Positions 16,485-62,800 of a DNA stretch of 64,000 bases are shown here, piece after piece. The notes beneath the pieces were generated by a model. It had not been told where the DNA came from, did not search any database, and saw only the letters and a program-made list of their open reading frames with translations. Position 1 is the first letter of the stretch, and each line of letters starts with the position of its first letter. The position numbers and the translations under genes are program-made. The DNA is from Bacteroidaceae bacterium (GTDB taxonomy: Bacteria; Bacteroidota; Bacteroidia; Bacteroidales; Barnesiellaceae_A): NCBI GenBank assembly GCA_017410245.1, contig JAFQRE010000016.1, positions 5,704 to 69,703 on the forward strand, given 5' to 3'.

Positions 16485-16508
16485 GGGCTACGCCTTGCGA
16501 CGTAGCCC
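16485..16508 (-). terminator. Hairpin between the third C10 gene and lptC (weak terminator or RNA stability element)
   Basis: gggctacg-ccttgcga-cgtagccc stem with a short, interrupted U tail on the minus strand. Confidence 0.5.
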
Positions 16509-16526: not shown

Positions 16527-18188
16527 TTATTTCTTAATAAAAGTCTTCACGCCTACACCTTCGCCATGCACATATCGCAAGATGTATGTACCGGCGGCCA
16601 ACGACGACACATTCACCTCGGTTTTATAAGTTGCCAACTCTCCGGCTTGTACTTGCGCACCGGCTACCGAATAGATAGCATACTCGCCACCTACAGCGGG
16701 CACCTCTACATTGATGTAGCTATCGGCTACCGAGGGATATACACGCATGGCATCGCTCATTACACTCTCTACCGCATTATCGGCAACGATTTGCACCTTG
16801 AAGAGTTGGTCGAACGACTCGCCTGTATTGGCATTGGTCACAGTCATATATATTTCGCGGAAAGCGGCAGCATCTTCTACTGTTTTGGTAGACATCAACT
16901 TGCCATCTTTCACCTCATAGGGCGATGCCACATGCTTGCCGGCGATGTTTTTGGGGCCTTTGAGTTCATACTCAAACACAGCCTCGGCATCTTCACAAGC
17001 CACTTTCACATCGGCGAGAGCTACACCGGCAGCTGTTCCGGCTGTAAAGCGGGTATTGCTCAATACGATACCATAGGGAGCTGTGGTGGGAGTACCTACA
17101 CCCACTATTGCACTATTGGCATAGGGGAAGGTAAGACCTTGATAGTCATCTTGCATCTTATCTATATCGAAGTAGCCATTACCATAGCCACCCCAACCCC
17201 AGTTTACGTGTACTTTCTGAGTAGAGTTTTTCCAACCGTCGATGTTCCAGCAGTGGGCACCGCCATCACCGGCACCAAAGTAGATAACTACGCGACCCAA
17301 AATCAACTCATCGAGCAAGAAATTCAGCCACTCTTCGCCCTTATCTTCTTTATTCACCAACTGAACATAATTCTCATCATACGAGAAGTTGCGCACCAAA
17401 GCCTTGGGTACGGGTTTATTGCCTGCACCCGAGCCATCAACGCCATAGCCCATCGATACCGACACACCGCAGTGGTAGAGCAAACGAGCCACCTCGTCAT
17501 AGTCACCTGTTTTGTCGCTGTTGAGCATAGCTTCCCAGTCGTAGGCTTTCTCGGCATCATAGTCGATAGAGAGCTTACCTATACCCTCACAAGTATATGA
17601 GTATTGTCCTACAGGACGCAAAGGATACTCTTGCACCATCATAGCCTGAGCCATACCCACAGCCACACAACCTACCATAACACGTTCGCCACCTACCGAA
17701 GGACAATGTCTGTTATAGGGATCGCCTTGGTTGAGATTGACAGTAACGAGAGGAGCTACATCGGGAACATTGGCAGGATCGGCAGCGGGTTTACGTTGCA
17801 TGATGCGTTGCCAAGCCTCGTGTTGGCTGTCGGCCATCACGCGAGCCTCTTCAACGATACGCTTTGCATTGGCATCAAGCACAGCCTGCATAGGCTCGGG
17901 CACTACATAAGCATCGGTTGTATTGTAACCTATGATAGGGTCGGACGACGACTGAGCGGCAACTATAGCCCAACCACCTTTATCATATTCCACCACGTAA
18001 TAGGCGGCAACACCATCACTCTCTACAAGTCTCACCGAAGCCTCTTGATGACCTTGCCACTCGCTATCGAGGCTGAGGAAGTTGTCGGCAACGGCCTTGG
18101 CATAGTCGGAAGTAATAACTTCGGCACTACTCCAGGTTGCAATCATTGCCACCGACACGGCGGCCAACAGGCTGAATACTCTTTTCAT
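16527..18188 (-). CDS. C10 (streptopain-like) cysteine protease paralog 3: propeptide, catalytic domain, cadherin-like domain, T9SS CTD
   Basis: Signal peptide; VGCVAVGMAQ (Cys), AHCWNIDG (His) and HVNWGWGG motifs; C-terminal RVYPS...LAAGTYIL...KTFIKK. Confidence 0.92.
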   Translation of the reverse strand: MKRVFSLLAAVSVAMIATWSSAEVITSDYAKAVADNFLSLDSEWQGHQEASVRLVESDGVAAYYVVEYDKGGWAIVAAQSSSDPIIGYNTTDAYVVPEPMQAVLDANAKRIVEEARVMADSQHEAWQRIMQRKPAADPANVPDVAPLVTVNLNQGDPYNRHCPSVGGERVMVGCVAVGMAQAMMVQEYPLRPVGQYSYTCEGIGKLSIDYDAEKAYDWEAMLNSDKTGDYDEVARLLYHCGVSVSMGYGVDGSGAGNKPVPKALVRNFSYDENYVQLVNKEDKGEEWLNFLLDELILGRVVIYFGAGDGGAHCWNIDGWKNSTQKVHVNWGWGGYGNGYFDIDKMQDDYQGLTFPYANSAIVGVGTPTTAPYGIVLSNTRFTAGTAAGVALADVKVACEDAEAVFEYELKGPKNIAGKHVASPYEVKDGKLMSTKTVEDAAAFREIYMTVTNANTGESFDQLFKVQIVADNAVESVMSDAMRVYPSVADSYINVEVPAVGGEYAIYSVAGAQVQAGELATYKTEVNVSSLAAGTYILRYVHGEGVGVKTFIKK

Positions 18189-18198
18189 AGTAATATGA

Positions 18199-19842
18199 TT
18201 ATTTCTTTATAAATGTTTTCACACCTACTCCCTCGTTGTGTTCATAGCGCAAGATGTATGTACCGGCCATCAACGACGACACATTCACCTCGGTATTATA
18301 GGCTGCCAACTCACCGGCTTGTACTTGTGTACCGGCTACCGAGTATATGGCATAGCTACCACCGGCTACCGGCACTTCTATGGTGATATAGTCGTGAGCT
18401 ATCGAGGGATATACACGCATAGCATCACTCATAATGCTCTCTACTGCGTCATTGGCAACAATTTGGAATTTAAAGTCTTTGGAGAACGACTCGCCGGTGT
18501 TGGTATTGGTTACGGTCATGAACAAGTCACGGAATGCAGCGGCATCTTCTACAGTCTTGGTTGCCATCAACTTGCCATCTACCACCTCATAGGGCGAGGC
18601 CACGTGCTTACCGGCAATATTCTTGGGGCCTTTGAGTTCATACTCAAACACAGCCTCGGGGTCTTCACATGCTATCACTACATCGGCAAGAGCCACGCCG
18701 GCAGCAGTTCCGGCCACAAACTTGGTCTTGCTTATTTTTATGCCATAGGGAGCTGTAGTGGGAGCACCTACACCTATCACCGCAGCGTTAAGATCGGGGA
18801 ACGACATACCTTGATACTTATCCTCCATCGAGTTGATATCGAAGTAGCTGTTACCATAGCCACCCCAACCCCAGTTTACGTGTACCATTTGAGTCGATTT
18901 CTTCCAACCGTCAATATTCCAGCAGTGACCACCGCCTTCGCCTTGACCACGATACACAACGACGCGACCCAACATTATCTCATCGAGAAGTATCGACAAC
19001 CACTCCTCGTCACTTTCGGGACGATCTACAAAGCGTACAAAGTTCTCATCATACTTGAAGTTGCGAGGCAAAGCCTTGGCCACGAGGTCGGTTTGAGTAC
19101 CCGAACCGTCAATGCCATACTGCATATTTACCGACACACCACAGTGATATACAAGGCGTGCTATTTCGTCAAAATCTTCTTGATACATAGCGTCCCAGTC
19201 GTAGGGAGCTTCGGCATCATAATCTATCGACAGTGTACCCACACCATCGGCTGCATAGGTATATTTACCCTCGGGAGCATCGGGATAACGAGCCACCATC
19301 ATGGCTTGAGCCATACCTACAGCCACGCAGCCCACCAAGGCGCGTTGGCCATTGATAGTAGGGCAATACTTATTGTAAGGCTCTTGTTGATTGAGATCGA
19401 TAGTGATAAGGGGAGCCACATCGGGAGTAGATGCAGGATCGGCAGCGGGCTTGCGTTGAGCTATACGTTGCCAGCCCTCATGCTTCACATCTTGTTGGTG
19501 ACGAGCCTCATCTACAATGCGCATTGCATTGGCTTTCATCACAGCCTGCATGGGCTCGGGAGCCTGATATGCACCGGTGGGATTGTAACAAATAACAGGT
19601 CGTGACGACGATTGTGCCGATACTACTGCCCAACCGCCTTTCTCATATTCTACCACATAATAGGCAGGCACACCATCTTCCTCAACAAGTGTCAGACGGG
19701 CATCTCCCTCTCCTTGCCACTCGCTATCGAGACTCATAAAGTTATCGGCAGCATTCTTGGCTACTTCCTGTGTTATAACTTCGGCTCCGGCATAAAATAC
19801 GGCCATTGCCAACACCGATACAATCGCTACAAATTTCTTCAT
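18199..19842 (-). CDS. C10 cysteine protease paralog 2 with T9SS CTD
   Basis: VGCVAVGMAQ, GHCWNIDG and HVNWGWGG motifs; CTD RVYPS...KTFIKK. Confidence 0.92.
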   Translation of the reverse strand: MKKFVAIVSVLAMAVFYAGAEVITQEVAKNAADNFMSLDSEWQGEGDARLTLVEEDGVPAYYVVEYEKGGWAVVSAQSSSRPVICYNPTGAYQAPEPMQAVMKANAMRIVDEARHQQDVKHEGWQRIAQRKPAADPASTPDVAPLITIDLNQQEPYNKYCPTINGQRALVGCVAVGMAQAMMVARYPDAPEGKYTYAADGVGTLSIDYDAEAPYDWDAMYQEDFDEIARLVYHCGVSVNMQYGIDGSGTQTDLVAKALPRNFKYDENFVRFVDRPESDEEWLSILLDEIMLGRVVVYRGQGEGGGHCWNIDGWKKSTQMVHVNWGWGGYGNSYFDINSMEDKYQGMSFPDLNAAVIGVGAPTTAPYGIKISKTKFVAGTAAGVALADVVIACEDPEAVFEYELKGPKNIAGKHVASPYEVVDGKLMATKTVEDAAAFRDLFMTVTNTNTGESFSKDFKFQIVANDAVESIMSDAMRVYPSIAHDYITIEVPVAGGSYAIYSVAGTQVQAGELAAYNTEVNVSSLMAGTYILRYEHNEGVGVKTFIKK

Positions 19843-19890
19843 CTACTACTATTATTAAATGTATTTACTATATTTTTCTCAATTCGGCCA

Positions 19891-19922
19891 CAAAGAAAAG
19901 AAAACGTAGCAAAAAAAGCAAA
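19891..19922 (-). promoter_or_regulatory. Probable promoter for C10 paralogs 2 and 3
   Basis: Minus strand TTTG-N20-TTTCTTTG (one mismatch in the -7 box). Confidence 0.5.
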
Positions 19923-19971
19923 TCATTTTCTATTTTTTGTATCCCATTTGAGAGTTTTCTTGCGTATTATC

Positions 19972-20006
19972 AAAAAAAGTCAAGGGCATCTATGATGCCC
20001 TTGACT
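19972..20006 (-). terminator. Intrinsic terminator after C10 paralog 1
   Basis: agtcaagggcatc-tat-gatgcccttgact 13-bp stem; the A-run on the left is a U tail on the minus strand. Confidence 0.85.
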
Positions 20007-20049
20007 CTTCATATCATATCGATTTTACTCCTGCGAGTCTATCGCTGTT

Positions 20050-21726
20050 TTATTTTACAATAAAGGTTTTCACACCTACACCTTCGGCATGAACATAACG
20101 CAATATGTATGTACCGGCAACAAGCGATGAAACATTCACCTCGGTCTTATGACCTGTCAATTGACCGGCTTGTGCTTGAGTACCGGCTATCGAATAGATA
20201 GCATACTCGCCACCGGCAGCAGGCACCTCTACAGTGATGTAGTCGTGAGCCACCGAAGGATATACACGCATAGCATCACTCATGACACTCTCTACTGCAT
20301 TATCAGAAACGATTTGGAACTTGAAGTCTCTCGTGAAAGACTCACCTGTGCGGTCATTGGTCACTGTCATATACAACTCGCGGAAGGCGGCTGCATCTTC
20401 TACAGTCTTGGTAGACACCAACTTACCATCTACCACCTCATAGGGCGAAGCCACGTGCTTGCCGGCGATATTTTTAGGGCCTTTGAGTTCATACAAGATA
20501 GTAGCCTCTTCGTCCTCGCAGAACACAGTCACATCGGCAAGAGCCACACCGGCAGCAGTTCCGGCTGTAAACTTGTTACGGCTCAACTCTATACCATAAG
20601 GAGCTGTTGTAGGCACACCTACACCTGTGATAGCACCATGGTGATACAAGAACGAAATACCTTGGTATGAGTCGGTCATATTATCAAGATTGAAGTATCC
20701 GTCACCGTAGCCACCCCAGCCCCAGTTACAGTGTACCATTTGAGTCGATTTTTGCCAACCGTCTATATTCCAGCAGTGGCCACCATTACCGGCCTCATCG
20801 GCGGCAGCTTGATAAAGCACTGCACGACCCATCAACAAGTCGGTCAATATGATATCATACCACTCGGCATCGCTATATTGGTAACGGAAGTAGAGGCCTA
20901 TTTTCTCTTTGTCATATTGGAAGTTCTTCACCAATGCACGAGCGGCATCGTCCATATACGCACCCGAGAATTGCAAACTATACATCATATCGATAGACAT
21001 ACCGGCATGATACAACATACGAGCCACCTCGTCATAGTTCTTGGTCTCATCGCACGAGAGAATGGCGTCCCAATCGTAAGCAGGCTCGGCATCGAAGTCT
21101 ATCGACAACTTACTCAGACCCTCAGGTGTATATGAATTAGAACCTACGGGACGAGCCGGGAAGCGTTGTACCATCATGGCTTGGGTCATACCCACTGCCA
21201 CACAACCTACAAGAGCGTGCTGGCCATTGATAGAGGGACAATACTTATTGTAAGGATTGCTTTGGTTGAGGTTGATAGTGATAAGAGGCTTGATGTCGGG
21301 GGTAGTATTAACATCAGCAGCAGGCTTGCGTTGCATCACACGCTCCCAACCTTGGTGTTTCATTTCCACACCGTCTTTCACACGAGCGGCTGTCATCTTG
21401 GCATTGAAGTCGAGCAACTCTTGCACAGGAGCAGGAGCCACAAACTTGCCTGTTGTGTTGTAGCCGATAACAGGAGTTGACGACGACTGTGCCGACACGA
21501 TAGCCCAGCCACCGGTTGTATATTCTACTACATAGTAGGCAGGCACACCATCATGTTCTACCATAGTGATAGTAGCATCGGTAGCACCTTGCCACGAGTC
21601 ATCGAGACTCAAGAAGTTGTCGGCGGTGAGCTTGGCAACATCTTGCGATATAAACTCGGCCGAAGCCACCATAAAGATTGTCGATACCAAAGTAGAGACA
21701 ATGAGAGTAAAGATCTTTTTCATCAT
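20050..21726 (-). CDS. C10 cysteine protease paralog 1 with T9SS CTD
   Basis: VGCVAVGMTQ, GHCWNIDG and HCNWGWGG motifs; CTD RVYPS...KTFIVK. Confidence 0.92.
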   Translation of the reverse strand: MMKKIFTLIVSTLVSTIFMVASAEFISQDVAKLTADNFLSLDDSWQGATDATITMVEHDGVPAYYVVEYTTGGWAIVSAQSSSTPVIGYNTTGKFVAPAPVQELLDFNAKMTAARVKDGVEMKHQGWERVMQRKPAADVNTTPDIKPLITINLNQSNPYNKYCPSINGQHALVGCVAVGMTQAMMVQRFPARPVGSNSYTPEGLSKLSIDFDAEPAYDWDAILSCDETKNYDEVARMLYHAGMSIDMMYSLQFSGAYMDDAARALVKNFQYDKEKIGLYFRYQYSDAEWYDIILTDLLMGRAVLYQAAADEAGNGGHCWNIDGWQKSTQMVHCNWGWGGYGDGYFNLDNMTDSYQGISFLYHHGAITGVGVPTTAPYGIELSRNKFTAGTAAGVALADVTVFCEDEEATILYELKGPKNIAGKHVASPYEVVDGKLVSTKTVEDAAAFRELYMTVTNDRTGESFTRDFKFQIVSDNAVESVMSDAMRVYPSVAHDYITVEVPAAGGEYAIYSIAGTQAQAGQLTGHKTEVNVSSLVAGTYILRYVHAEGVGVKTFIVK

Positions 21727-21763
21727 TAGAGGTGATTGATTGTTTAAATTGTTTATTTCGGTG

Positions 21764-21795
21764 CAAAGATATACATTCTATCGTACAATCACAAA
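21764..21795 (-). promoter_or_regulatory. Sigma-A promoter for C10 paralog 1
   Basis: Minus strand TTTG-N20-TATCTTTG, a perfect consensus match. Confidence 0.8.
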
Positions 21796-21870
21796 GAGAT
21801 TGACATTATTTATATATGCGACTCCATAATATATCATATACTACACAAAACACATTGCCGGCAAAGGCAT

Positions 21871-21911
21871 AAAGAAAAAGAAAGTGCACTCCACGCGGAA
21901 TGCACCTTCTT
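21871..21911 (-). terminator. Intrinsic terminator ending the susC operon
   Basis: aagaaagtgcactcc-acgc-ggaatgcaccttctt imperfect stem with an A-rich left flank. Confidence 0.65.
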
Positions 21912-21932
21912 GATACTCGTTATAGAGATTTA

Positions 21933-23396
21933 TTATTTCTTAATAACGCGGAATTCGCGGGGAAGATCCTTGATAGCAGACATTTCCAAGCGAATGGGAG
22001 TCTCATAGTAGTTCACTTGTGATGCGCCCAATATGCTCTCATCAACGATTAAGAGTTGCTCGAAATCGAACAAAATGTAGGGACTTTCACCTCGGCCAAG
22101 ATCGGCTATAAAGATTACACAAGGGCTATAAGCGGCATTAACCAAAACTTCGTTACCATTCATCTCATCTACTATAAAATCACAAGTTGTATAGAGACTA
22201 CCTGTTGAAGGATCCCAACTTGCAAAGTAGCACTCTTGCTGAGCACTTGCACCGGCGTTTGTAAGGTCATAGGTACCGGCTACAACAAGACCGTTAGGAG
22301 CTGTAGAATTGGGATCAAAGAATGTAAGCCATGAATAAGTGTTACCATCTTGTGCTTGAGCTTCATAAGAGAAACAAGGCACATCATAAACTTGAGCATT
22401 GGTCAAAATAGACATTACGCTGGGCATTGACCATTCATTTGCAATGAGAGCTGAGCCAAAATACTCGCTCAAATCAACATTACTTTGTACTAAAGATACT
22501 TGGAAAAAGTCCGAACCTACTTCTTTCTCTGATTCGTCTTCAGTAAATGAAGTAGAAAGACCATAATAAGCATAATTAGCACCGTCTTGGAGGAAGCCTT
22601 CTATCTCAACATCACCACCGGGGTTATTCTCATAGCTCCACCAGGGACCTGTGGGAAGGAGGTCGGCATCGAGACCATTCTCGATAGCCACCATCTTGTT
22701 CTCATAGAGGTCGGTTACAGCACCCTCGGCAAACGAGAGAAGCACAAACGACATGGCGTTCTCGGGGAATGCTACAGTCTCGGGCAATGTAACAGTGAGG
22801 TTGCTACCCGAAGCAGTTGCAACAGCATCACCTGTATCAATAGTCTCAAGGTTTTCGTCGAGAACAGCATAAGTGATAGCACCCATGTTGTCGTTGCGAA
22901 TGATAGCCTCGTTGAATGCAAGAGTTACTCTTCTACCTTGTTGAGCGGGAGTGAGGGGGAATACCGAAGTGATGTAAGGAGCAGTCACGTCGTAAGCACC
23001 AATCACCTTAGCAAAAGTAGTTTGTACACCTGCACCATTGGCAGCAACTACATAGAGGTAGTAAGTAGTACCGGGAACAACACCGGGGTAGTTGACAGAT
23101 TTGGCATCACCCGCCGAATCAACTTCAGCTACTAATGCGCCATAACCACCTTGCAAGAGAGTGGTATAATCAATCTCCACAGGCTCAGTACTGATTGTAA
23201 GAGCAATATTGGTAGCATGCTTAGTGATAATCTCGATAGGCAATGTCTCAGAGAGGACAGAGTCGGGAGTATTAACAGTAAGCTCAGCTACAGGACCCCA
23301 TGTATCGGGTGCCATGGGTTCGATATTCTCCCATTGGGCGCAACCGGTCATGATAAGACCGATTGCGAGAGAGAGCATATATACTAACTTTTTCAT
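21933..23396 (-). CDS. SusCD-associated acidic surface lipoprotein with FN3/Ig-like domains
   Basis: Lipobox MTGC; PGTTYYLYVVAAN (FN3-like); D.TAP...VTLAFNEAI...EGAVTD (Big_5-like); no catalytic motif recognised. Confidence 0.7.
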   Translation of the reverse strand: MKKLVYMLSLAIGLIMTGCAQWENIEPMAPDTWGPVAELTVNTPDSVLSETLPIEIITKHATNIALTISTEPVEIDYTTLLQGGYGALVAEVDSAGDAKSVNYPGVVPGTTYYLYVVAANGAGVQTTFAKVIGAYDVTAPYITSVFPLTPAQQGRRVTLAFNEAIIRNDNMGAITYAVLDENLETIDTGDAVATASGSNLTVTLPETVAFPENAMSFVLLSFAEGAVTDLYENKMVAIENGLDADLLPTGPWWSYENNPGGDVEIEGFLQDGANYAYYGLSTSFTEDESEKEVGSDFFQVSLVQSNVDLSEYFGSALIANEWSMPSVMSILTNAQVYDVPCFSYEAQAQDGNTYSWLTFFDPNSTAPNGLVVAGTYDLTNAGASAQQECYFASWDPSTGSLYTTCDFIVDEMNGNEVLVNAAYSPCVIFIADLGRGESPYILFDFEQLLIVDESILGASQVNYYETPIRLEMSAIKDLPREFRVIKK

Positions 23397-23424
23397 TGTT
23401 ATATTTGCTTTACTGAGTTATACA

Positions 23425-24390
23425 TTATTTTTTAACCATTGTAGGAGCTTGGATAGCTTGATACCACCACTCATTAGCAGCGATGTTACCTACACCAAAA
23501 CCGTCGCTGAAGCTGATAGTTACACCACCATCTACCACCTCGAAGTTAGCAATATTAATGCCAGACAAAACAGGAGAGTTACCAACACCGGCTATAACCA
23601 TGTTATAGCTTTGACCTTCGCCACCATATACGCATTGTCCGTAAGGCATTGCTATAGTACCCTTAGCAACATCTACAAGAGCATATACAGGATAGATTGA
23701 GCCTGCAGAGAGACCACCAAACATACAGATGGGTTGGAACCAGATCTTATTGTCAGCCTCATCGTCACGAGAGATTGTCACCTCCCAGCTTTCATCGGGG
23801 TAACCGTCGAACATAGAAGCAGCGGTAGCAGCATAAGTACCAACGAGCATGTTCATGGGGTCCTCATCGTCGGCAATAGTCACAGCAAATATGCTGTGAG
23901 CACCGAGGTTGCAACCCTTAACATTGTTGAGAACAAGGTCGAACTTCTTGTCACCACCTTGTTGGTTGTTGTCGATAGTTTGAACATAGATAGAAGCGAA
24001 ACGATGATCGGCATCGAACTTGATAACGTTACCGGCTGTCAAATCAACAGTTTGAACGTTTGAACGGTTCTTTTGAGTATCCTCGTTATAAACTTCGGCA
24101 CCAACAAAAGTGAAAGCCTCACCTACCTTGGCACGGAGAGCCTCGGCATAAGCAGTATCAACAGCCTCGAAAACAACCTCGGCATTGATACCTTCTACAG
24201 AAGCACAGTGCAATTTCACTTCGAGCATACCGGGAACACCGTCAACGGCCTCTTTAACAATAGCCGAAGCACCCTCGAAGGCAATATAAGCTTGCGTATT
24301 GTCATCAAAGACAGGTTGCTTGTTGAGATCGCAAGAAGCAAAGAGCAACGAAGCTGCAAGCGTAGTGTATATTAAACTTTTAATTTTCAT
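23425..24390 (-). CDS. SusCD-associated lipoprotein with a Calx-beta-like domain
   Basis: Lipobox FASC; IAFE......KE, IDNNQQGGDKKFDLVL and VTIADDED resemble Calx-beta. Confidence 0.7.
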   Translation of the reverse strand: MKIKSLIYTTLAASLLFASCDLNKQPVFDDNTQAYIAFEGASAIVKEAVDGVPGMLEVKLHCASVEGINAEVVFEAVDTAYAEALRAKVGEAFTFVGAEVYNEDTQKNRSNVQTVDLTAGNVIKFDADHRFASIYVQTIDNNQQGGDKKFDLVLNNVKGCNLGAHSIFAVTIADDEDPMNMLVGTYAATAASMFDGYPDESWEVTISRDDEADNKIWFQPICMFGGLSAGSIYPVYALVDVAKGTIAMPYGQCVYGGEGQSYNMVIAGVGNSPVLSGINIANFEVVDGGVTISFSDGFGVGNIAANEWWYQAIQAPTMVKK

Positions 24391-24419
24391 TTTTACTAAA
24401 ATTTAAATATTAGTATTAA

Positions 24420-25862
24420 TTACCAACCGGGGTTTTGTACCAAATTGGGGTTCACGTCAAACTCGCTCTCAACGAAGGGCATGCACCAGTATTTGCTTGT
24501 AGCGGGCACGTCTTTGTTGATAGCTGAAGAAACGTCGGTACGAACGAGATCGCGTTGGAGACGTTTGTAGTCGTGGAAGAGGTGACCCTCGAAGGCCAAC
24601 TCACGACGACGCTCATTGAAGATATCGTCGGCCGAAACAACAGCAAACTCGGCAGCGTTACGGTTTGAAGCGATAACGTTGATATCAGAAGTAGCACCAT
24701 TGATGTTACCTTGCTCATAACGAGCCTCGGCACGTACAAGGTACATCTCAGAGATACGGATCATAGGAATGCTTGAGTAAGCAACGGGACCGCCATCTTT
24801 ACCTTGGTACTTGTTGGGCCAGTAGTAACCGGTGTGCTCATCAGAAGTGCGGAGCATCTCTTTACGAACGTCACCATCGGCATAGAGCTCGAGGAGGTCG
24901 TTAGATACGCGAATGTCACCGTACTCATCGGGGTGAGTCAAGTTACCGGGAGAAGAGTTCAACGAACCCTCAACTTGGCTAACATAGGCAGCGAAGATGA
25001 TTTCACCGGCACCTTCCCAAGTAACATCGCCCCAGAAAGTTTGATAAGTAGCAGCATCGGCAATTTGATAATCGCCCGAGTTGATTACGTTAGTAGCGTG
25101 AAGCTCAGCGTTAGCATAGTCGTTCATATAGAGATATACGCGAGCGAGGAGAGCCTCGATAGCACCTGCAGAAACGGCACACTTAGCGTCATATACACCG
25201 GCACGTACATACTCGGGATCGATAATCTCGAGAGCTGTAGTGAGGTCTTCAACGATAAGCTCATAGTTCTTAACTGTAGTTTCACGAGCGGGTTTTTGCA
25301 ATACACTCACGTTGGCATCTTCGCTTGTAACGGGAACACCAAGAGACTTCACATCACCCTCGGGAGCAGCAACAGCTACAGCATAGGGTTGAGCATACCA
25401 ACGAACGAGGTCGAAGTAGCACAAAGCGCGTACAAAGAGACACTCGGCCATGAGGTTATCCAAGTCTTGTTGTTTCACGCCATCCTCTTTGAGGTAATTC
25501 TCGGCGTTGTTTTTGATAGCATAGATAACGTTGTTACAACGCAAGATGTTGGTATAGGCACTACCAAATACGGGACCACCACCGGCCTCGGTGAAGTTCC
25601 AAGTTTGCCAGTTCATACCACGACCCGAGTTCAAGGGAATACCTGCTACGCAGTTACCGCACATTACATCGGGGTACAAGAGGGTGTTAAGACCATACCA
25701 ACCCTCCGAGCGGAAAGCCGAATATGTAACGGCTGCAGCACCGTCGATACCACTGTATACAGACAAGGCCTTATCAGAGTCGAGATAGATTTCGGGCGGC
25801 GTTGTAAGGTCGCACGAAACAAGGCCAAGCGCAACGGCTGCTAATAAAAATATCTTTTTCAT
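24420..25862 (-). CDS. SusD/RagB family lipoprotein
   Basis: Lipobox LVSC; ECLFVRALCYFDLVR, ALLARVYL, RISEMYLVRAEA, ERRRELAFEG and C-terminal QNPGW. Confidence 0.95.
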   Translation of the reverse strand: MKKIFLLAAVALGLVSCDLTTPPEIYLDSDKALSVYSGIDGAAAVTYSAFRSEGWYGLNTLLYPDVMCGNCVAGIPLNSGRGMNWQTWNFTEAGGGPVFGSAYTNILRCNNVIYAIKNNAENYLKEDGVKQQDLDNLMAECLFVRALCYFDLVRWYAQPYAVAVAAPEGDVKSLGVPVTSEDANVSVLQKPARETTVKNYELIVEDLTTALEIIDPEYVRAGVYDAKCAVSAGAIEALLARVYLYMNDYANAELHATNVINSGDYQIADAATYQTFWGDVTWEGAGEIIFAAYVSQVEGSLNSSPGNLTHPDEYGDIRVSNDLLELYADGDVRKEMLRTSDEHTGYYWPNKYQGKDGGPVAYSSIPMIRISEMYLVRAEARYEQGNINGATSDINVIASNRNAAEFAVVSADDIFNERRRELAFEGHLFHDYKRLQRDLVRTDVSSAINKDVPATSKYWCMPFVESEFDVNPNLVQNPGW

Positions 25863-25885
25863 ACTTCTTTATTCTTTACAAGTTA

Positions 25886-28864
25886 TTAGAATGAAATATC
25901 AAGACCTACGATAAATGATTTGGTAGTAGGATATTGACCCAATGAAACACCTGAAGTACCACGCTCGGGATCCCAGTATGTAGCATCGTGGAGAGTGATG
26001 AGGTTGTAACCGCTGACATAAACACGGAGGTTGTTGATAGCAGCTTTCTTCATCCACTTAGCGGGGAATGTATAACCGAGAGTCAAGTCTTTCACGCGGA
26101 GGTAATCACCACGCTCGAGGAAACGAGTTGATGAAGTCCAAGAAGAGTTAGTACCGTTGTTGGCGATAGGCATAGGAGAGCAACCGGTGTCACCGATTTC
26201 TTTCCAGTAGTTACCAGCAACCTTCAACTGGTTGTAACCAAATGTAGCACCGTCATTCCAAATCAATTGGTGGTCGGGATAGAGGAGGTAGTTACCAATC
26301 TTATACTCGAAGCTTGCGCTGAAGTCGATACCGTTCCAGTTCAAAGCAGTGTTGAAACCACCGGTAGCGATAGGTTCGGGAGAACCTTTGTAAACACGAC
26401 GAGCCTCGTCGAAGCTGTTGGTGATCGCACCTTCTTCGTTATACCAGAGAGCCTCACCATTAACGGGGTTAACACCGGCATAGTCGTAGAGGTAGAATTG
26501 CATCAACTGCTCACCTTGTACGGCGCGGATACCGCTACCGAGTGAGAGGTAATCTTTGTCACCAATGTTGATAACTTTAGACTTGTTGTAAGAGAAGTTG
26601 ATACCGAATGTCCATTGGAGGTCGTTGTTGTTGATAATATCAACATCGAATTGAGCCTCAACACCTTGGTTCAAGAGTGAACCAACGTTCTTGGTCATTG
26701 AGCTGAAACCGGTAGTCAAAGGAATACGAGTTGCGAGCAACATGTCCTCAGTAGTACGGTGGTAGTACTCCAATGATCCCGAGAAGCGATCCCAGAAACG
26801 GAAGTCAACACCGACGTTGTGAGCCAAGTTAGTTTCCCAAGTAAGGTCGGGGTTAGGCAAGTTGATAGGAGCCGAACCGTTAACACCATTGTAAGTACCC
26901 GAGCCATAGAGAGCGTAAGCCAAGTATGCACCGATGTTGTTGTTACCGTTTACACCATAGCTATAACGGAGTTTCAATTGGTTAACCCATTCAGCATCTT
27001 CCATGAATGATTCTTTGTCAACATTCCAAGAAGCACCTACCGACCAGAAGAGACCCCAGCGACGGTTTTCACCGAAGAGTGAGCTACCATCACCACGAAC
27101 CGATGCTTGCAAGTAATATTTTTGACGATAGTTGTAGTCGGCAACACCGAAGAACGAAAGCATCTTCTCATCTACCGAGCTATAACCAAGCAAGTAAGTG
27201 CTTTGGGGAGCGTTATCGGGGAAAGGAAGCAACTCGTTCACGTCGCGAGCTTGATAAGAATCGCCGAAGCTTCTTGTATAAGTGTACTCTTGACCTGCCA
27301 ATACACGGAGGAAGTGCTCATCGTTGAAGTTATCCTCGTAAACAGCAGTATTAGAAGTAGTAATAGCTTGATATTGTGAGTTACCACCGGCAACAACGTT
27401 TTGGTTGGTTGTTGTCATGTAACCGGGCTCATAAGAGTAGTTACGAGTGAAGAGCAACTCAACGCTATTGTTAGACTTGAATGTCAATTGACGGATAGGT
27501 TTCCACTCCAAGTACATTGTACCATTCATCTTGTAGTGAGTATCGTATGTATTCTTGTCGAATGCATAAGCCAAGGGGTTGATATCGTTGTACAAGGGGA
27601 GGTTGAAGTTGTAAGAACCGTCTTCGTTATAAATAGGATATGTGGGAGGCATTACAACACCACCGAAGAAGGGGTTGGTAAATGTCCAATTGTCGGCTTG
27701 GTTGGTTGACTCACCGGTCATGCGAATGTAACCACCATTGACACGAGCACCAAATTTCAACCATTTGTTCAACTCGCTATCAACGTTTACACGCATGCGG
27801 AGGTTTTGATAGTCAGAACCGTAAGTAATACCTTGGCTCTTGTTGTAAGCGATAGAAGCATAGTAGTTAGTCTTAGCAGTACCACCTTGAGCATTCACCT
27901 CATACTCTTGCATAGAGCCCTCACGAGTAAGAGCGTCCATCCAGTTGTAAGATCTTTGAGCTTTGGTACCGATAGGCATATAATACTCGCTATAGGGATC
28001 GTCGGGGTTGTAGCCACCGTTGATAGCAGCGTCGCGATACCAATCAACAAACTCTGAACCATTCATGACAGCGTAGTTGTTGTCATTGGCGAGAGTAGTG
28101 ATACCGGCACGTACACGAGCTGTGATGCGAGCTTTACCTTCGCTGTTCTTACCGCTCTTGGTTGTGATAAGGATCACACCGTTGGCAGCACGCGAACCGT
28201 AGATAGAAGCAGCAGCAGCATCTTTCAACACAGTGATTGAAGCGATATCGCTGGGGCTGATGAGGGCGATAGCATTGGTACTTTCGGCAGCACCACCCGA
28301 GATATCACCACTCATTACGGGAATACCATCGACTACATACAATGGGTTGCTACCGGCCGAGAGTGAAGAAGTACCACGTACACGGATTGTAGTGGTAGCA
28401 CCGGGCTGACCATTGCTACTTGTAATTTGCACACCGGCCATTTTACCTTGCAACATCTTATCGACTGATGTAGCAGGGATAGAAGCCAACTCGTCACCGC
28501 TTACTTGAACAACGGCACCGGTCTTTGCTTCGCGACTTTGTACACCGTAACCAACCACGATTACCTCATCGAGAGTAGTCGTAGAAGATAGAGTCACTAC
28601 CATGCCATCACGAGCAAACACTTCGGCTTTCTCCATACCGATGTAGGAGATAACAAGTGTTTTAGAGCCGTCAGGCAACTTGATAGAGAAGCGTCCATCG
28701 GCATCAGTGATTGCCGATGAGTTTGTACCCTTCACGAGGACAGATGCACCATAGATAGGCAGATCGTCGTCGCCAGAAATAACTGTACCTGTTATGGTCT
28801 TTTGAGCCATAGCAGACGTTACTCCTACTAACAGGGCACACAAGAACATTGTTAGTTTTCTCAT
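25886..28864 (-). CDS. SusC/RagA family TonB-dependent transporter
   Basis: Plug motif PLYVVDG...LKDAAAASIYGSRAANGVILITTK, NPDLTWE, and terminal F. No N-terminal signalling extension. Confidence 0.96.
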   Translation of the reverse strand: MRKLTMFLCALLVGVTSAMAQKTITGTVISGDDDLPIYGASVLVKGTNSSAITDADGRFSIKLPDGSKTLVISYIGMEKAEVFARDGMVVTLSSTTTLDEVIVVGYGVQSREAKTGAVVQVSGDELASIPATSVDKMLQGKMAGVQITSSNGQPGATTTIRVRGTSSLSAGSNPLYVVDGIPVMSGDISGGAAESTNAIALISPSDIASITVLKDAAAASIYGSRAANGVILITTKSGKNSEGKARITARVRAGITTLANDNNYAVMNGSEFVDWYRDAAINGGYNPDDPYSEYYMPIGTKAQRSYNWMDALTREGSMQEYEVNAQGGTAKTNYYASIAYNKSQGITYGSDYQNLRMRVNVDSELNKWLKFGARVNGGYIRMTGESTNQADNWTFTNPFFGGVVMPPTYPIYNEDGSYNFNLPLYNDINPLAYAFDKNTYDTHYKMNGTMYLEWKPIRQLTFKSNNSVELLFTRNYSYEPGYMTTTNQNVVAGGNSQYQAITTSNTAVYEDNFNDEHFLRVLAGQEYTYTRSFGDSYQARDVNELLPFPDNAPQSTYLLGYSSVDEKMLSFFGVADYNYRQKYYLQASVRGDGSSLFGENRRWGLFWSVGASWNVDKESFMEDAEWVNQLKLRYSYGVNGNNNIGAYLAYALYGSGTYNGVNGSAPINLPNPDLTWETNLAHNVGVDFRFWDRFSGSLEYYHRTTEDMLLATRIPLTTGFSSMTKNVGSLLNQGVEAQFDVDIINNNDLQWTFGINFSYNKSKVINIGDKDYLSLGSGIRAVQGEQLMQFYLYDYAGVNPVNGEALWYNEEGAITNSFDEARRVYKGSPEPIATGGFNTALNWNGIDFSASFEYKIGNYLLYPDHQLIWNDGATFGYNQLKVAGNYWKEIGDTGCSPMPIANNGTNSSWTSSTRFLERGDYLRVKDLTLGYTFPAKWMKKAAINNLRVYVSGYNLITLHDATYWDPERGTSGVSLGQYPTTKSFIVGLDISF

Positions 28865-29109: not shown

Positions 29110-29117
29110 CAAAGATA
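29110..29117 (-). promoter_or_regulatory. -7 promoter box upstream of susC
   Basis: Minus strand TATCTTTG about 245 nt upstream of the ATG; no -33 box at canonical spacing. Confidence 0.55.
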
Positions 29118-33609: not shown

Positions 33610-33665
33610 GCTATATACATTATATAATACGGCAATCGTCAAAAATTATTGTATCGACACGCTGT

Positions 33666-58599: not shown

Positions 58600-59817
58600 T
58601 TATTTTATCAAGTTCTTTATTCCTTCCATGTCAAACGACAAGGTGAAGCGCAATGTTTGGTCGAGCGGACTCGAAGCTGCTGTTGCCAAGAGATAGGCAG
58701 CATCTACTTGCAATACGCTATAGGCAAAACTGGCACCAAACGAGAAAAATTGGCGGTTGCCTTTATATTCGTCTTCGTAGTAGTAACCGGCACGAAGTGA
58801 GAACTGACGGTTGTATGAGTACTCAATACCTACAGAGAAGTTTATCTCACGCAACTCTTCGGCAAAACCTCCGGGTGCATCGTAGAACGACTTGGCAATA
58901 CCTTCAAAGGGCGACATGGCATAATATTCTTCACGAGCTGCATTGTAAGCATCGGTATCAATTGTACCATCTTCATTTCTGAATTGATATTCTTGTGGCA
59001 TAGTGGGTACCAACAACTTATTGGCATCGAAATTAATCGACATGGTATTCTTGTCGGCTATGGGAAACAAGAAAGTTGTACCCAACTTGAGGTTAGTAGG
59101 CAAGAATGCCGGCTCATTACCATTATCATAGGCAAGTTTCGAACCGATATTCGAGATATTCATACCCCATGTCCACTGACACTCGTTGCGGGCAATAATA
59201 GGATATGAAGTGTGATACCATGAAATATCGGCGCCAAAGGCCGAAGCTCCCTTGACACTTCCTGTGGCACTTCCGCTCTCGTCATATTGAAAACCGAGGT
59301 CGGAATAGATATAGCGCAATACTACACCCATTGAAAAACTCTCCGACAACTTACGTGAGTAACCCACATCTACTGCCATCTCAAAGGGATTGATTGAATT
59401 TACTTCATCACCATTCTGGTTGGTAAGAATAATACTACCCAATGAGAAATAGCGCAACGAAGCACTGACAGCTTGGGGACTACCCTCGCCAAACTTCAAA
59501 TAGCCACTAAGGTTGGCCAAGTAGATGTCATTGACAAGTTTACTCAACCAAGGTGTGTATGACAAACCTATACCTGCATCGCTGTAGGCAAATGCATACT
59601 TCGAAGCGTTCCAAAACTGAGAGTTTACATCGGGGTCGGTAGCCGCACCTATATCACCCATACCGGCACCTCGCGCATCGGGTGCAATTGTGAGCGATGT
59701 AGCTCCGGTATTGACCGGATTGAATTGTCTTACTACCTCTCCCTGTCCATACACATTGATGGCATAAAGCGTTACCATGAAGAGTGCTATGACCGATATT
59801 TTTCTTGTCTTATTCAT
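58600..59817 (-). CDS. porV: T9SS shuttle/outer membrane protein PorV
   Basis: LTIAPDARGAGMGD, SYTPWL and SPLDQTLRFTL motifs; porU-porV-ispF synteny. Confidence 0.95.
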   Translation of the reverse strand: MNKTRKISVIALFMVTLYAINVYGQGEVVRQFNPVNTGATSLTIAPDARGAGMGDIGAATDPDVNSQFWNASKYAFAYSDAGIGLSYTPWLSKLVNDIYLANLSGYLKFGEGSPQAVSASLRYFSLGSIILTNQNGDEVNSINPFEMAVDVGYSRKLSESFSMGVVLRYIYSDLGFQYDESGSATGSVKGASAFGADISWYHTSYPIIARNECQWTWGMNISNIGSKLAYDNGNEPAFLPTNLKLGTTFLFPIADKNTMSINFDANKLLVPTMPQEYQFRNEDGTIDTDAYNAAREEYYAMSPFEGIAKSFYDAPGGFAEELREINFSVGIEYSYNRQFSLRAGYYYEDEYKGNRQFFSFGASFAYSVLQVDAAYLLATAASSPLDQTLRFTLSFDMEGIKNLIK

Positions 59818-59875: not shown

Positions 59876-62800
59876 TTATTGCCCCAAGACAATTATTTTT
59901 TTCTGCTCAGTGACAAATTTATTGTCGCCAACTCCTACGAGGGCATATACCATGTACTCACCGGGCAGGGCTTTGCCATACGATGTAGTCATATCCCACA
60001 CAATCTCTGTTGCAGGAGTCTCTACAGACCACACTTCACGTCCGGTAGCTCGTTCCACAACAACATAACGAACAATCATGCTCTCCTCGACTACACCGTC
60101 GATACTCAACGATGCCTTGTCAATTACAGGATCCTCGGCAATATGCAACTCATATTGTGGACTCACTATCTCGTTGATGACAAAAGATATAGTAGCCTCA
60201 GATGCATTACCGGCATTGTCAAACAATCTGATTGTGACTGTGTGCATACCAGCCTCAAGACCTTTGAGAGTATAATCGATACTACCTTGGGCACTACCCT
60301 TTATAGGGCTATAATAGCCCGACAAGTCATTACATACAACCCTGCCATCGATGAGCAATATCATACTGCGACCCAACGCCACCTCATTATTGGTTATACC
60401 ACTCTCATTGTCACTCACATCGCAATGGAATAGACTGTTGGGGGCTACCACATCGCCCTCGCTAAATGTGTCATCACCAATCCAAATATTATCTATAGTG
60501 GGAGCTGTAGCATCTGCCACAGCATCATCAACACCATATACGTGTATGTTTTTACTGAAACCGGCTGCCTCTATGTTCATGTCGGTATTGTAGGCATAGA
60601 GAGTAATAAGACCGGTTGTATCGCTCTGCAATGTTTGCGAAGGCATGCGGAATTTTGTTGTAAAACAACCATCGACAATCGTGTCGGCAGCAACCACCAA
60701 TTTGTATTGTCGCAATCCGAAATTCTCTTTTATAGTAATATTTCCGCCGGGAGTTGTAATAGACTCTTGGGCAGCCAAATCTACTTCAGCATCATATACC
60801 TCATAGCATAGCGTACCATTGTAGTCGGGCACAAACTCTCCCGCCTCGTTATATATTTTACCCACAAGAGTCACTTCGCTATTGGCAGGTGTTTTCACGA
60901 TGACATTATCGACCATATCCACTCCATTAATACGCTCTATTTCGATGCGATAGGTAGGCAAAGGCAACGCCAAAGCAGGATCGCCAATTAGACAATATTT
61001 GAGTTTATTAGGGTCGCTTACAAGATTACCCTTTTCGTTATATAACAGAGACTCCTTGGCACGGCGCATCACATCGCCCAAACGTATTTTACCATCGGCT
61101 GCCGGGACAAAAAGTTCACGCAACAGCTCGCGATTTATATCCTCATTGCCATTGGTGTAGACTGTGCGAGTGGTGGTATATAAAGCTATGAAACCACCTT
61201 GATCGTTACGGAATAACTCCTCTCCTACCGAGTTTTCGTCCTTATCGAAAGGACACACATCGCAAGTAGCAGTGATAAATACCGGCCAGTAGTCATTGCG
61301 CATACTCTTGGCATGATTGATACCTATAAGGTTGCTACCCAACGACACATGCCCGGCATGTCCCATATAGCTATATATAAATGCACCCTCTTCAAGATCT
61401 CTGAAGATTTGCTCTTGAGCGCCCTCAAACTCGGCTCCGGGGCGCGAGTTATAGGCATTGAGATATACCTTATCGGGCACAATGTGCTCTTGTTCGTTCT
61501 CTACCGACTCAAGCGAAACGGTATTCATCTGATGCACATGAAGATTATTATCGCCATTGAGACCTATAAAGCAAGCTTTGTTCTTCCACATATTATTCGA
61601 TGGCTTTTGCGACATATATTTTACCAACTTGTTATAGACCTTCTTCGACTCCTCAAGGCTTTTGATAGGCATACGACCTATACCCAAGTCTATCTTCTCC
61701 ATCGATATATCATAGCCGGTATTGTCGCCAAGGATACCAAAGTAATCATCGGAGACATACGAATAACGCTGGTCGGTACTGGTCTCCGACTGGTAGGTGA
61801 CAAGCAACATATTATCCTCGTTGTGCATATTGGGGGCTATAGCTCGGTTGTTATACGAACTGCGTCCATACAGCAACAAATAACGAGGTGCGCTACCATA
61901 ACCGGCTTGCGCTCGGTCGTAGAACATCTTCATCAGGCGACGTATAGCAGTAGCATCGGGTATGCCACCCGAAAATTCATTGAAAACCGACAACTGATCA
62001 CACACCAGCACCTTCATATTGTCGGTATCACGGTGTATCTGCGCTATACGTTCGGCCTCTTTCATAAAGTATCGAGTAGAGATAATTACCATATCGGGAA
62101 TATAGTCTATTCCATGCAAATTTTGAGGCTCTACCTGACACACAAATTGGGGTATGGCAAGGGTATCGGTTATGTCGTATGCAACATACTCTTTAAGTAA
62201 CAGATCCTCTTCTTGGGGCTTGAAAGTCACTTTACCATCGACAATTGCAGTTTGTTGCAAAACAGGAGCCTCGGTATCGGTTATATCCCATACTCGTATG
62301 TTATTGGCATGACGATTGGCAACATCTAAGGCATAGTAATCGCCACTTTGTTGCGTACTGCGGAACTGCATTTGAGCATCATTGAGTACAAGACTACGAG
62401 TATAAAACATGCGTACAAAATCGAGATAATAACTCTTGATAGAGCCGGCTCCTTTGGAGGTAAACGACAATGTAAACTCGTCTGCAGCCGCTACTGTATA
62501 GTAGTTGTTGGCCTCCTTGAGATAGGTATATGAGTCGGAAGCTCCTACAACCATTGTGGGAGACAAGGCCGAGCCATTATAATGCGGAATGAGTGTACGT
62601 GTTGTCGAAGCGTTGGCTCCTAAAGCAATGTGCAGTGTCATCTTATCACCCTCCACACCGGGAAGGTTGAATGTCAGAGAGTTGTTATTGATAAGATCCT
62701 CGCCAAGATACAGACGGCCGGTCTGGCCAATACATATATCCTCATTTTCGTGTAAAGCATATTCATCAAACGAGGTTATACTTGTTCCTTCACACACATC

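Follow-up and report, generated by a model that had tools for sequence, protein, structure and literature searches.

A SusCD operon with two accessory lipoproteins beside predicted type IX-secreted C10 proteases: a candidate protein or peptide acquisition locus in Bacteroidales

Gene content and transcription units of the locus

The subject of this work is a block of seven open reading frames (ORFs), all on the minus strand, that spans positions 16527..28864 of a 64,000-nt stretch of contig JAFQRE010000016.1 from Bacteroidaceae bacterium (assembly GCA_017410245.1). The whole stretch is referred to here as the window, and coordinates are window positions. An earlier note on this DNA had described seven co-oriented genes encoding a SusC and a SusD protein, two lipoproteins and three peptidases of family C10, and the ORF listing places all seven exactly where that note had put them (Table 1). 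The block is examined here as a candidate locus for the acquisition of proteins or peptides.

Table 1. Features of the locus and type IX secretion genes in the window
Feature	Position	Strand	Description
TATCTTTG promoter-like -7 motif	29110..29117	-	246 nt upstream of susC
susC	25886..28864	-	992 aa; TIGR04056, TIGR04057, PF07715, PF13715
susD	24420..25862	-	480 aa; PF07980 86.3 bits, PF14322 59.1 bits
321-aa acidic lipoprotein gene	23425..24390	-	signal peptide ...FASC; isoelectric point (pI) 4.22
487-aa acidic lipoprotein gene	21933..23396	-	signal peptide ...MTGC; pI 4.05
Terminator-like hairpin closing the four-gene transporter operon	21878..21911	-	15-bp stem and T-run; -23.1 kcal/mol, z = -6.2
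TATCTTTG promoter-like motif	21764..21771	-	precedes the C10a start codon by 38 nt
C10a	20050..21726	-	558 aa; PF01640 170.3 bits, PF13734, TIGR04183 25.7 bits
Hairpin after C10a	19974..20010	-	-26.1 kcal/mol, z = -8.5, then T-run
C10b	18199..19842	-	547 aa; PF01640 173.8 bits, PF13734, TIGR04183 28.0 bits
C10c	16527..18188	-	553 aa; PF01640 171.4 bits, PF13734, TIGR04183 29.3 bits
Hairpin after C10c	16485..16508	-	third hairpin; closes C10b-C10c
porV	58600..59817	-	NF033710 480.5 bits
porU	59876..63274	-	NF033707 773.8 bits

The product of susC scored 809.9 bits against TIGR04056 (cut-off 368.25) and 63.2 bits against the TIGR04057 signature (cut-off 46.2), and it contains a Plug domain (69.6 bits) and an N-terminal CarboxypepD_reg-like domain, which places it as a predicted SusC/RagA-family TonB-dependent transporter; the Pfam/NCBIfam scan found no STN domain in it. 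The susD gene, separated from susC by 23 nt, encodes a protein with SusD_RagB and SusD-like_3 domains and a signal peptide ending in ...GLVSC, the profile expected of a SusD/RagB-family lipoprotein lid. The genes for the two acidic lipoproteins come next, and the spacing among the four transporter genes is only 23-29 nt.

The three remaining genes encode proteins that share 63-69% identity with one another and that all combine an Inhibitor_I69 domain (41-44 bits), a Peptidase_C10 domain and a sorting domain of type A of the type IX system for protein secretion (T9SS; TIGR04183 cut-off 23). In C10a these elements are laid out as an I69 propeptide, the catalytic domain, an immunoglobulin (Ig)-like spacer and the C-terminal sorting domain. 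Cys175 and His317 (C10a numbering), taken to be the catalytic residues by analogy with streptopain, are invariant in seven aligned C10 proteins, and the three proteins can be assigned by their domains to peptidase family C10. The earlier note had also reported PorU and PorV in the window, and profile matches agree with it (Table 1). With a sorting domain in each protease and both components encoded in the genome, C10a, C10b and C10c are predicted T9SS type A cargo, whose sorting domains would be processed by PorV (the shuttle) and PorU (the sortase).

At the level of the whole genome (2.53 Mb, 99.3% complete) eight C10 domains were found, five of them outside the locus, together with only four SusC/SusD pairs, susC being one of four full SusC genes. 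These two counts fit a greater investment in proteolysis than in glycan harvesting. The five C10 ORFs found elsewhere are larger (817-1586 aa; G000:C22:3959-8719, C27:12361-15912 (L162), C6:38500-41892 (L161), C11:7437-9890 and C35:259-3045), and the one on C6 carries BspA-type leucine-rich repeats and a DUF6383 tail, without a recognised T9SS type A domain. Within the locus, one contig from an RNA library (run X3) joins position 16710 to 18383, skipping 1672 nt; this is the product to be expected from recombination between the C10c and C10b paralogues, and it fits the two or three C10 copies seen among the congeners.

The four transporter genes appear to form an operon that ends at a strong terminator-like hairpin. 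Beyond it, C10a is preceded by TATCTTTG, which fits the Bacteroidetes -7 promoter motif TAnnTTTG; this pattern occurs 72 times in the window against 44.7 expected, so that a single match is only suggestive. The same motif upstream of susC would imply a long 5' leader, given its distance from the gene. Further hairpins follow C10a and C10c, the latter gene starting 10 nt after C10b. The arrangement is conserved, since a hairpin with a T-run is found after the last lipoprotein gene in all nine genus gaps analysed and, where other families were examined, in 12 of 15. The earlier note had placed a terminator at about 21.9 kb and separate promoters, and had concluded that the proteases are probably not on the susC transcript; the hairpins here and in most relatives, together with the motif before C10a, bear this out. 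Co-transcription of the proteases with the transporter in other families, where the gaps are short, was considered and rejected in view of the hairpin-plus-T signal in those 12 gaps. Transporter genes and proteases are thus adjacent, yet they appear to belong to separate transcription units.

Contigs from metatranscriptomes of two studies together cover the transporter and the C10 genes: those from three runs of one study cover susC to the 487-aa lipoprotein gene, with ends at 21921, 21947 and 21964, and those from one run of the second study cover the C10 genes. Such contigs cannot rank expression and may include DNA carry-over, and if the three runs of study P1 cover C10b and C10c only sparsely, this is not evidence of silence. 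None of the RNA contigs listed bridges the gap at 21.7-21.9 kb, and the contig ends near the terminator may be taken as a weak hint of separate units.

Recurrence of the linkage between the transporter and a secreted endopeptidase

The 487-aa lipoprotein was found in all 13 congeners; a sample of the order's other families (47 genomes, one per family) did not contain it. The gene order in the congeners is coaX, susC, susD, lipoprotein, lipoprotein, C10 (two or three copies), lptC and ppiD, with C10 genes following in 12 of the 12 loci whose contig continues; one further contig ends just past the lipoprotein gene. Since the housekeeping neighbours are conserved in the genus as well, linkage at this level alone shows only synteny. 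The conservation of those neighbours is confined to the genus.

Relatives of the locus outside the genus were collected through the SusD protein. A search over 301 genomes of the order (298 of them non-genus) returned a top tier of nine loci in eight non-genus genomes, at 38-45% identity, and a SusD-alignment scan of the genomes of 185,579 species added 80 loci. Neighbouring genes were annotated with Pfam, NCBIfam and profiles built from the loci themselves, followed by a six-frame recheck, and a SusD tree of 94 rows was built with FastTree (Shimodaira-Hasegawa (SH)-like support, no bootstrap, midpoint root). Every protease-linked locus fell within one clade of 42 rows with an SH-like support of 99, of which the SusD of the window is a member. 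The clade holds 38 non-genus loci, including three (L103, L108 and L120) that have no row in the tree and were placed by SusD profile score and neighbouring genes, L120 being a truncated fragment with 423 bits only. Nine of the 38 could not be evaluated because their contigs end (L083, L087, L088, L096, L099, L100, L105, L107 and L120), which leaves 29.

In 21 of these 29 loci a C10 or an S8 protease follows SusD. The protease lies directly downstream on the same strand, and it is a C10 enzyme in 13 loci (L068, L069, L072, L074, L082, L084, L085, L093, L095, L101, L102, L106 and L131) and an S8 subtilase in eight (L086, L089, L090, L091, L097, L103, L108 and L111); a T9SS sorting domain was recognised in five of six full-length S8 proteins scanned. 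The other eight loci have no protease (L070, L071, L073, L075, L076, L092, L094 and L098); in its place, L070 and L071 have a T9SS protein with Sortilin/BNR repeats. A core formed by a Calx-beta lipoprotein and a Big_5-type lipoprotein is present in most loci of the clade, and the co-oriented blocks of the related loci contain only SusC, SusD, the Calx/Big_5 lipoproteins, the protease, a 222-aa protein and a PorV-like barrel, to which L091 adds a BACON-domain protein.

As controls, 20 loci of more distant SusDs from the same order were inspected over some 9 kb downstream, and the 52 tree rows outside the clade over six genes; neither set contained a single C10 or S8 gene. The earlier note had proposed to see whether the linkage to C10 genes recurs across genomes, and it does recur, with C10 or S8 enzymes, inside this clade. 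Across the order C10 proteases were found in 217 of 301 genomes (about 710 matches, or approximately 2.4 per genome of 2-8 Mb), so chance adjacency would be expected at about one in a thousand per locus. Moreover, three genomes (G023, G110 and G118) have a single C10 each, and it is placed at this locus. Loci linked to S8 group together in a single subclade of 11 rows (support 99) nested within the protease-linked clade, and the simplest reading of this topology would be an exchange of the C10 partner for an S8 enzyme with the transporter left in place, so that the transporter kept a secreted endopeptidase as a neighbour even as the class of the protease changed.

These observations bear on an explanation in which linkage does not imply a common substrate. 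The proteases would serve immune evasion, adhesion or the processing of surface proteins, SusCD would import an unrelated nutrient, and their adjacency would reflect an inherited island of surface-protein genes or common regulation. The proteases do resemble known C10 enzymes (streptopain SpeB, interpain A and the Bacteroides Bfp/Btp proteins) in their Peptidase_C10 domain, I69-type propeptide and conserved Cys and His residues, and differ from them in carrying a T9SS sorting domain and in lying beside a SusCD operon. In the available part of one account (PMC4936053), T9SS streptopain homologues of gut Bacteroidales are read as immune-evasion enzymes, and the known C10 homologues are discussed there as virulence or immune-modulating factors, not as enzymes of nutrient acquisition. 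This explanation also draws on the conserved terminator that divides the locus into separate transcription units, on the five of eight C10 domains that lie elsewhere in the genome, on the eight clade loci without a protease and on a tyrosine recombinase (phage integrase family) gene at L131:5715-6893, directly after the locus in a Parabacteroides-labelled metagenome-assembled genome. Set against it are the persistence of the adjacency over many families and through a change of protease class, the sole C10 found at the locus in three genomes, the empty within-order controls and a domain common to lipoprotein and proteases that is described below, and we consider it unlikely. As for the recombinase itself, its presence and the patchy distribution of the clade are a hint of horizontal movement.

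The S8-type loci have a further constant element. A barrel of the PorV/PorQ family, of about 306 aa, is encoded right after the S8 protease in all seven S8-type loci whose contig continues (L086:17571-18491 and L097:17271-18191, with counterparts in L089, L090, L091, L103 and L111), and the two proteins scanned gave 190 and 103 bits against NF033709. This suggests a putative T9SS shuttle dedicated to the cargo encoded beside it.

Such a barrel, like the linkage to T9SS cargo in general, could also be accommodated by a housekeeping role, in which SusCD would recover the fragments released by the T9SS (sorting domains, propeptides and shed surface proteins) and not foreign protein. The large I69 propeptides of the proteases would supply material of this kind, and the neighbours of the block in the window include the envelope-biogenesis genes lptC, ppiD and bamG. 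However, these envelope genes keep their place only within the genus, the substrate-binding-like lipoproteins would be left unexplained, and the literature searched gave no precedent for a SusCD system in such a role, which makes this a very improbable account of the locus.

Other genes recur at the related loci. The protein of about 222 aa has a signal peptide and an N-terminal WPY[IL]Y motif and gave no Pfam or NCBIfam match (examples are L082:15711-16382, L084:15702-16367 and L086:14218-14886). It precedes the S8 protease in eight of eight S8-type loci, follows C10 in eight of the 13 loci of C10 type, in one case on the opposite strand, and stands alone after SusD in L075 and L094. The genome of the window has a member elsewhere (G000:C13:150075-150794; L160:5076-5792), divergent from an M16 peptidase gene, and the ESM Atlas places the family in unnamed Bacteroidota clusters only. 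M16 peptidase genes adjoin L086 and L095, the former belonging to a Maribellus isolate and thus to a culturable carrier among the clade loci. In two C10-type loci from different families (L069:8681-11335 and L072:1565-4234), a gene convergent to C10 encodes a T9SS serine protease of the trypsin type, 884-889 aa long. Outside the clade, L077 (G039:C2:1174900-1189900) and L125 form a separate SusD lineage (pair support 100) with a peptidase set of its own. In L077, the genes after SusD encode a DUF4843-like protein, a Met-zincin (DUF4953) and a dipeptidyl-peptidase of family S46; L125 has genes that match these in size.

Accessory lipoproteins and relationship to known SusCD systems

The sequences of the 321-aa and 487-aa lipoproteins matched neither Pfam nor NCBIfam, nor did they match solved structures, including BT2261 and BT2262; their domain names come from relatives and from predicted models. 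Calx-beta domains were recognised in 36 of 54 relatives of the 321-aa protein, and Big_5 domains in 30 of 50 relatives of the 487-aa protein. Together with the low isoelectric points of both, this agrees with the earlier note, which had called them acidic and Ig/Calx-beta-like. Both families are rare, with 76 and 55 clusters, all unnamed or hypothetical, among 5.8 billion proteins.

The AlphaFold model of the 321-aa lipoprotein (predicted local distance difference test (pLDDT) score 89.6) consists of a Calx-beta domain (residues ~32-177) and an eight-stranded beta-barrel (~178-321). Its N-terminal domain superimposes on Calx CBD1 with a Z score of 14.1 (root-mean-square deviation (rmsd) 2.0, 113 residues aligned). 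The whole chain matches BT2262 with Z 9.5 (rmsd 5.6, 180/199 residues) and the barrel alone matches BT2261 with Z 8.8 (116 residues), both values lying in the range that the tool calls middling, and this likeness of predicted fold is to be taken as a lead, not as proof. Several two-domain lipoproteins of polysaccharide utilisation loci (PULs) also ranked high in the Foldseek search with this model: 3sot, 3n91 and BT3507, whose description reads 'auxiliary nutrient binding protein'. The model of the 487-aa lipoprotein (pLDDT 81.7) shows two domains of Ig/FN3/PKD type (~31-136 and ~137-260) and a C-terminal beta-rich domain (~270-455). A wide structural search with residues 31-259 gave Ig-like matches at Z ~9, Foldseek found only generic Ig/FN3 chains, and the ESM Atlas returned for the C-terminal domain only leads below 0.8 (DUF4984/DUF4987).

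A possible link between the lipoproteins and proteolysis comes from the barrel of the 321-aa protein, which recurs within the genome at 35-47% identity (E 1e-18 to 1e-38). Three of the five larger C10 ORFs, those of 1183, 1130 and 1586 aa, carry two or three copies each, and the module is also found in three non-protease ORFs. Likewise, residues 35-139 of the 487-aa lipoprotein, that is, its first Ig domain, match part of the 1183-aa C10 ORF at 36% identity. Modules common to binding proteins and enzymes, as in surface glycan-binding proteins (SGBPs) and carbohydrate-binding modules, are a hallmark of glycan PULs; the module-sharing partner enzymes predicted here are proteases.

The affinity of the transporter itself was assessed against solved structures. 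The single SusC sequence scored 392.8 bits with RagA, 385.5 with 8aa4 and 146.7 with BT2264, in the last case over the plug region only, while a profile of the SusC clade gave 637.5 bits with 8aa4, 621.8 with RagA and 299.8 with BT2264, the lowest-scoring solved SusC. The SusD clade profile gave 290.6 bits with 3kez, 163 with the dextran SusD and 88 with RagB, and BT2263 was absent from the 39 SusD chains matched at E <= 1e-5. According to the accessible part of a preprint (10.64898/2026.02.19.706672), 8aa4 is the SusC of a dextran utilisome. The earlier note had read the locus as an analogue of a PUL in which proteases are coupled to a 'RagAB-like' SusCD. The linkage on which that proposal rested holds; the label does not, since this SusC is about equally close to RagA and to the dextran SusC, and this SusD is far from RagB. 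By sequence, the transporter cannot be filed as RagAB-like or as BT2263/BT2264-like, and any likeness to the known peptide importers would lie in the logic of the genes and, more weakly, in the modelled fold of one accessory protein.

The RagAB system of Porphyromonas gingivalis (PDB 6sli among other entries) shares with the locus a SusCD-type pair, a protease-rich Bacteroidales host that bears a T9SS, and a gene neighbourhood without carbohydrate-active enzymes (CAZymes). RagA is one of the two best-scoring solved homologues of this SusC, slightly behind the dextran protein, and RagB is distant from this SusD. To our knowledge, no accessory lipoprotein genes and no protease gene lie beside RagAB. 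RagAB has been described as a peptide importer that takes up protease-generated peptides (10.1101/755678, in the part available). The BT2261-BT2264 system of Bacteroides thetaiotaomicron (PUL27; PDB 5fq6-8, 5fq3 and 3h3i) offers a parallel in organisation, being a four-gene SusC/SusD/two-lipoprotein unit without CAZymes, and the four closely spaced genes with a closing hairpin found here correspond to such an operon. It differs in that this SusC and SusD are not orthologous to BT2264 and BT2263, in its smaller lipoproteins (here one has a Calx-beta domain and the other is a three-domain Ig chain), and in lacking the secreted proteases that flank the present locus. In the accessible portions of two reports, the BT2261-64 complex was solved with oligopeptide ligands (PMC7782687) and its substrate is described as still unknown (PMC8121099).

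The glycan utilisomes of B. thetaiotaomicron (levan and dextran PULs) resemble the locus in another way, since they combine SusCD, surface binding lipoproteins and a surface endo-acting enzyme that cuts the polymer into pieces small enough for import, with modules common to binding protein and enzyme, and the dextran pair is the closest to this SusC/SusD among functionally characterised structures. Here, unlike there, the enzyme is a predicted endopeptidase, T9SS cargo instead of a lipoprotein, encoded behind a terminator, and there is no dedicated regulator. The parallel invites a different explanation for the locus, in which SusCD and the lipoproteins would bind and import glycans or glycopeptides derived, for instance, from mucin or from glycoproteins of plants; the proteases would do no more than strip the protein backbone, and the glycan-degrading enzymes would be encoded elsewhere. 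Both transporter proteins are at least as close to the dextran pair as to RagAB, the layout of the lipoproteins is that of PUL surface glycan-binding proteins (the DUF1735-type 3sot and 3n91, BT3507 and, at rank 11, SGBP-B of a mixed-linkage glucan utilisation locus), and a Sortilin/BNR-repeat T9SS protein occurs in two clade loci and a BACON-domain protein in one. Nevertheless, Pfam and NCBIfam scans of the 14 genes at 12.5-35 kb found no glycoside hydrolase, polysaccharide lyase, carbohydrate esterase or sulfatase domain, and no hybrid two-component system (HTCS), extracytoplasmic function (ECF) sigma factor or SusR regulator. This agrees with the earlier note, which had seen no glycoside hydrolase, sulfatase, HTCS or ECF regulator; the locus thus lacks the CAZymes and the dedicated regulator found beside SusCD in a canonical PUL. 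The co-oriented blocks of the related loci that were scanned were likewise free of glycoside hydrolases, lyases and sulfatases, the sole GH10 seen, in L082, being on the opposite strand beyond an ATPase gene. Since, in addition, the conserved partner enzyme is an endopeptidase and the barrel module is common to proteases and not to CAZymes, we regard import of a glycan as improbable.

PUL-like loci with peptidases have been described in Flavobacterium and, in the available parts of the reports, are read as oligopeptide-uptake systems (PMC10132118 and PMC9723704): TRV642_0198-0209 of F. collinsii combines SusCD with peptidases (PMC10132118), and a collagenase of F. psychrophilum lies with the SusCD pair THC0290_2100/2101 (PMC9723704). 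The enzymes of these loci are S9, S37, M24 and M43 peptidases or a collagenase, those portions describe neither a Calx/Big_5 pair nor a C10 or S8 T9SS protease, and the tree places the SusDs recovered from Flavobacterium outside the clade. A literature search, which left subscription journals mostly outside its reach, found no account of the Calx/Big_5 lipoprotein pair, of an interchangeable C10/S8 partner or of a module common to lipoprotein and protease; it found no paper linking a C10 protease to SusC/SusD and no relevant paper under 'protein/peptide utilization locus/loci'.

A proposed two-module model for protein harvest

All these observations can be integrated by assuming a conserved locus for protein or peptide acquisition made of two modules, a reading to which we assign a probability of about 0.6, with protein or peptide as the presumed substrate. 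In this model, the first module is the four-gene operon, which would build a TonB-dependent 'pedal-bin' importer with accessory binding proteins, probably exposed at the cell surface. The second comprises the three C10 endopeptidases encoded directly downstream, behind the terminator hairpin and with their own promoter-like motif before C10a, which would be exported by the T9SS and processed by PorU/PorV. Extracellular proteins would be cut by these proteases, either secreted or attached to the surface; the lipoproteins, one of which carries the barrel module also present in large C10 proteases, would capture protein or fragments; and SusCD would import the resulting oligopeptides into the periplasm. 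The argument for this reading starts from the linkage in the genus and across families, the controls, the sole-copy C10 genes, the change of protease class and the shared module, and it draws further on the fold likeness to BT2262/BT2261, the missing sugar machinery, the balance of SusCD pairs and C10 domains, and the cover by RNA contigs.

A number of facts weigh on the other side. The transporter has no special sequence affinity to peptide importers, its SusD being nearer to the dextran SusD than to RagB, and the fold matches that recall BT2262/BT2261 (Z 8.8-9.5) are only middling on the scale of the tool. The proteases lie off the predicted susC transcript in the window, throughout the genus gaps and in most non-genus ones. 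More than a quarter of the evaluable clade loci (8/29) have no protease, and the Sortilin/BNR-repeat cargo in two of them, together with the BACON-domain protein of another locus, could point to a glycoprotein. The clade is sparse, with a top-tier SusD in only 8 of the 298 non-genus genomes sampled in the order, and it rests on a FastTree phylogeny without bootstrap. Because the organisms behind the loci are related to one another, and because two genomes supply a pair of loci each, the counts are not independent events and overstate their number. Finally, streptopain, interpain and other C10 homologues are usually discussed as immune-evasion factors, as in the accessible part of PMC4936053.

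A more ambitious version of the two-module model, a 'proteolytic utilisome', would be an outer-membrane counterpart of the glycan utilisomes for the degradation of protein, with the T9SS-anchored endopeptidase, the two lipoproteins and SusCD physically assembled, with the barrel as a docking or substrate-holding element and with a slot in which C10 and S8 enzymes (the latter with their own PorV-like barrel) are interchangeable across Bacteroidales. We put it forward tentatively, as a rather doubtful extension of that model.

SusCD systems are textbook sugar importers, and the well-studied cases linked to peptides are only RagAB and BT2261-64. In the clade described here, many Bacteroidales families keep a transporter, two lipoproteins and a secreted endopeptidase side by side despite a change in the class of the protease. 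If the proposed function is correct, the locus would provide a genetically hard-wired model of protein harvest by gut and environmental Bacteroidota, and as a genomic marker it could serve to recognise proteolytic lifestyles among uncultured gut bacteria. It would also suggest that C10 'streptopain-like' proteases, commonly interpreted as virulence factors, have a part in nutrition. Neither the 'RagAB-like' label nor any claim of co-transcription should be retained.

With regard to the surroundings of the block, the flanking genes are rlmN, ppiD, lptC, coaX, bamG, a gene for an OmpA-family protein and queA, and an Rfam scan of 12-32 kb of the window gave no match. Upstream of susC and divergent from it, bamG (30321-31526) overlaps the end of coaX and encodes a BamG-family protein (NF053685, 312.5 bits); it is adjoined at 31615-33642 by a gene for a 675-aa protein that combines TPR, PD40, CarboxypepD_reg and OmpA domains. 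A further T9SS cargo, 739 aa long and with leucine-rich repeats and a sorting domain of type A, is encoded at 38807-41026.

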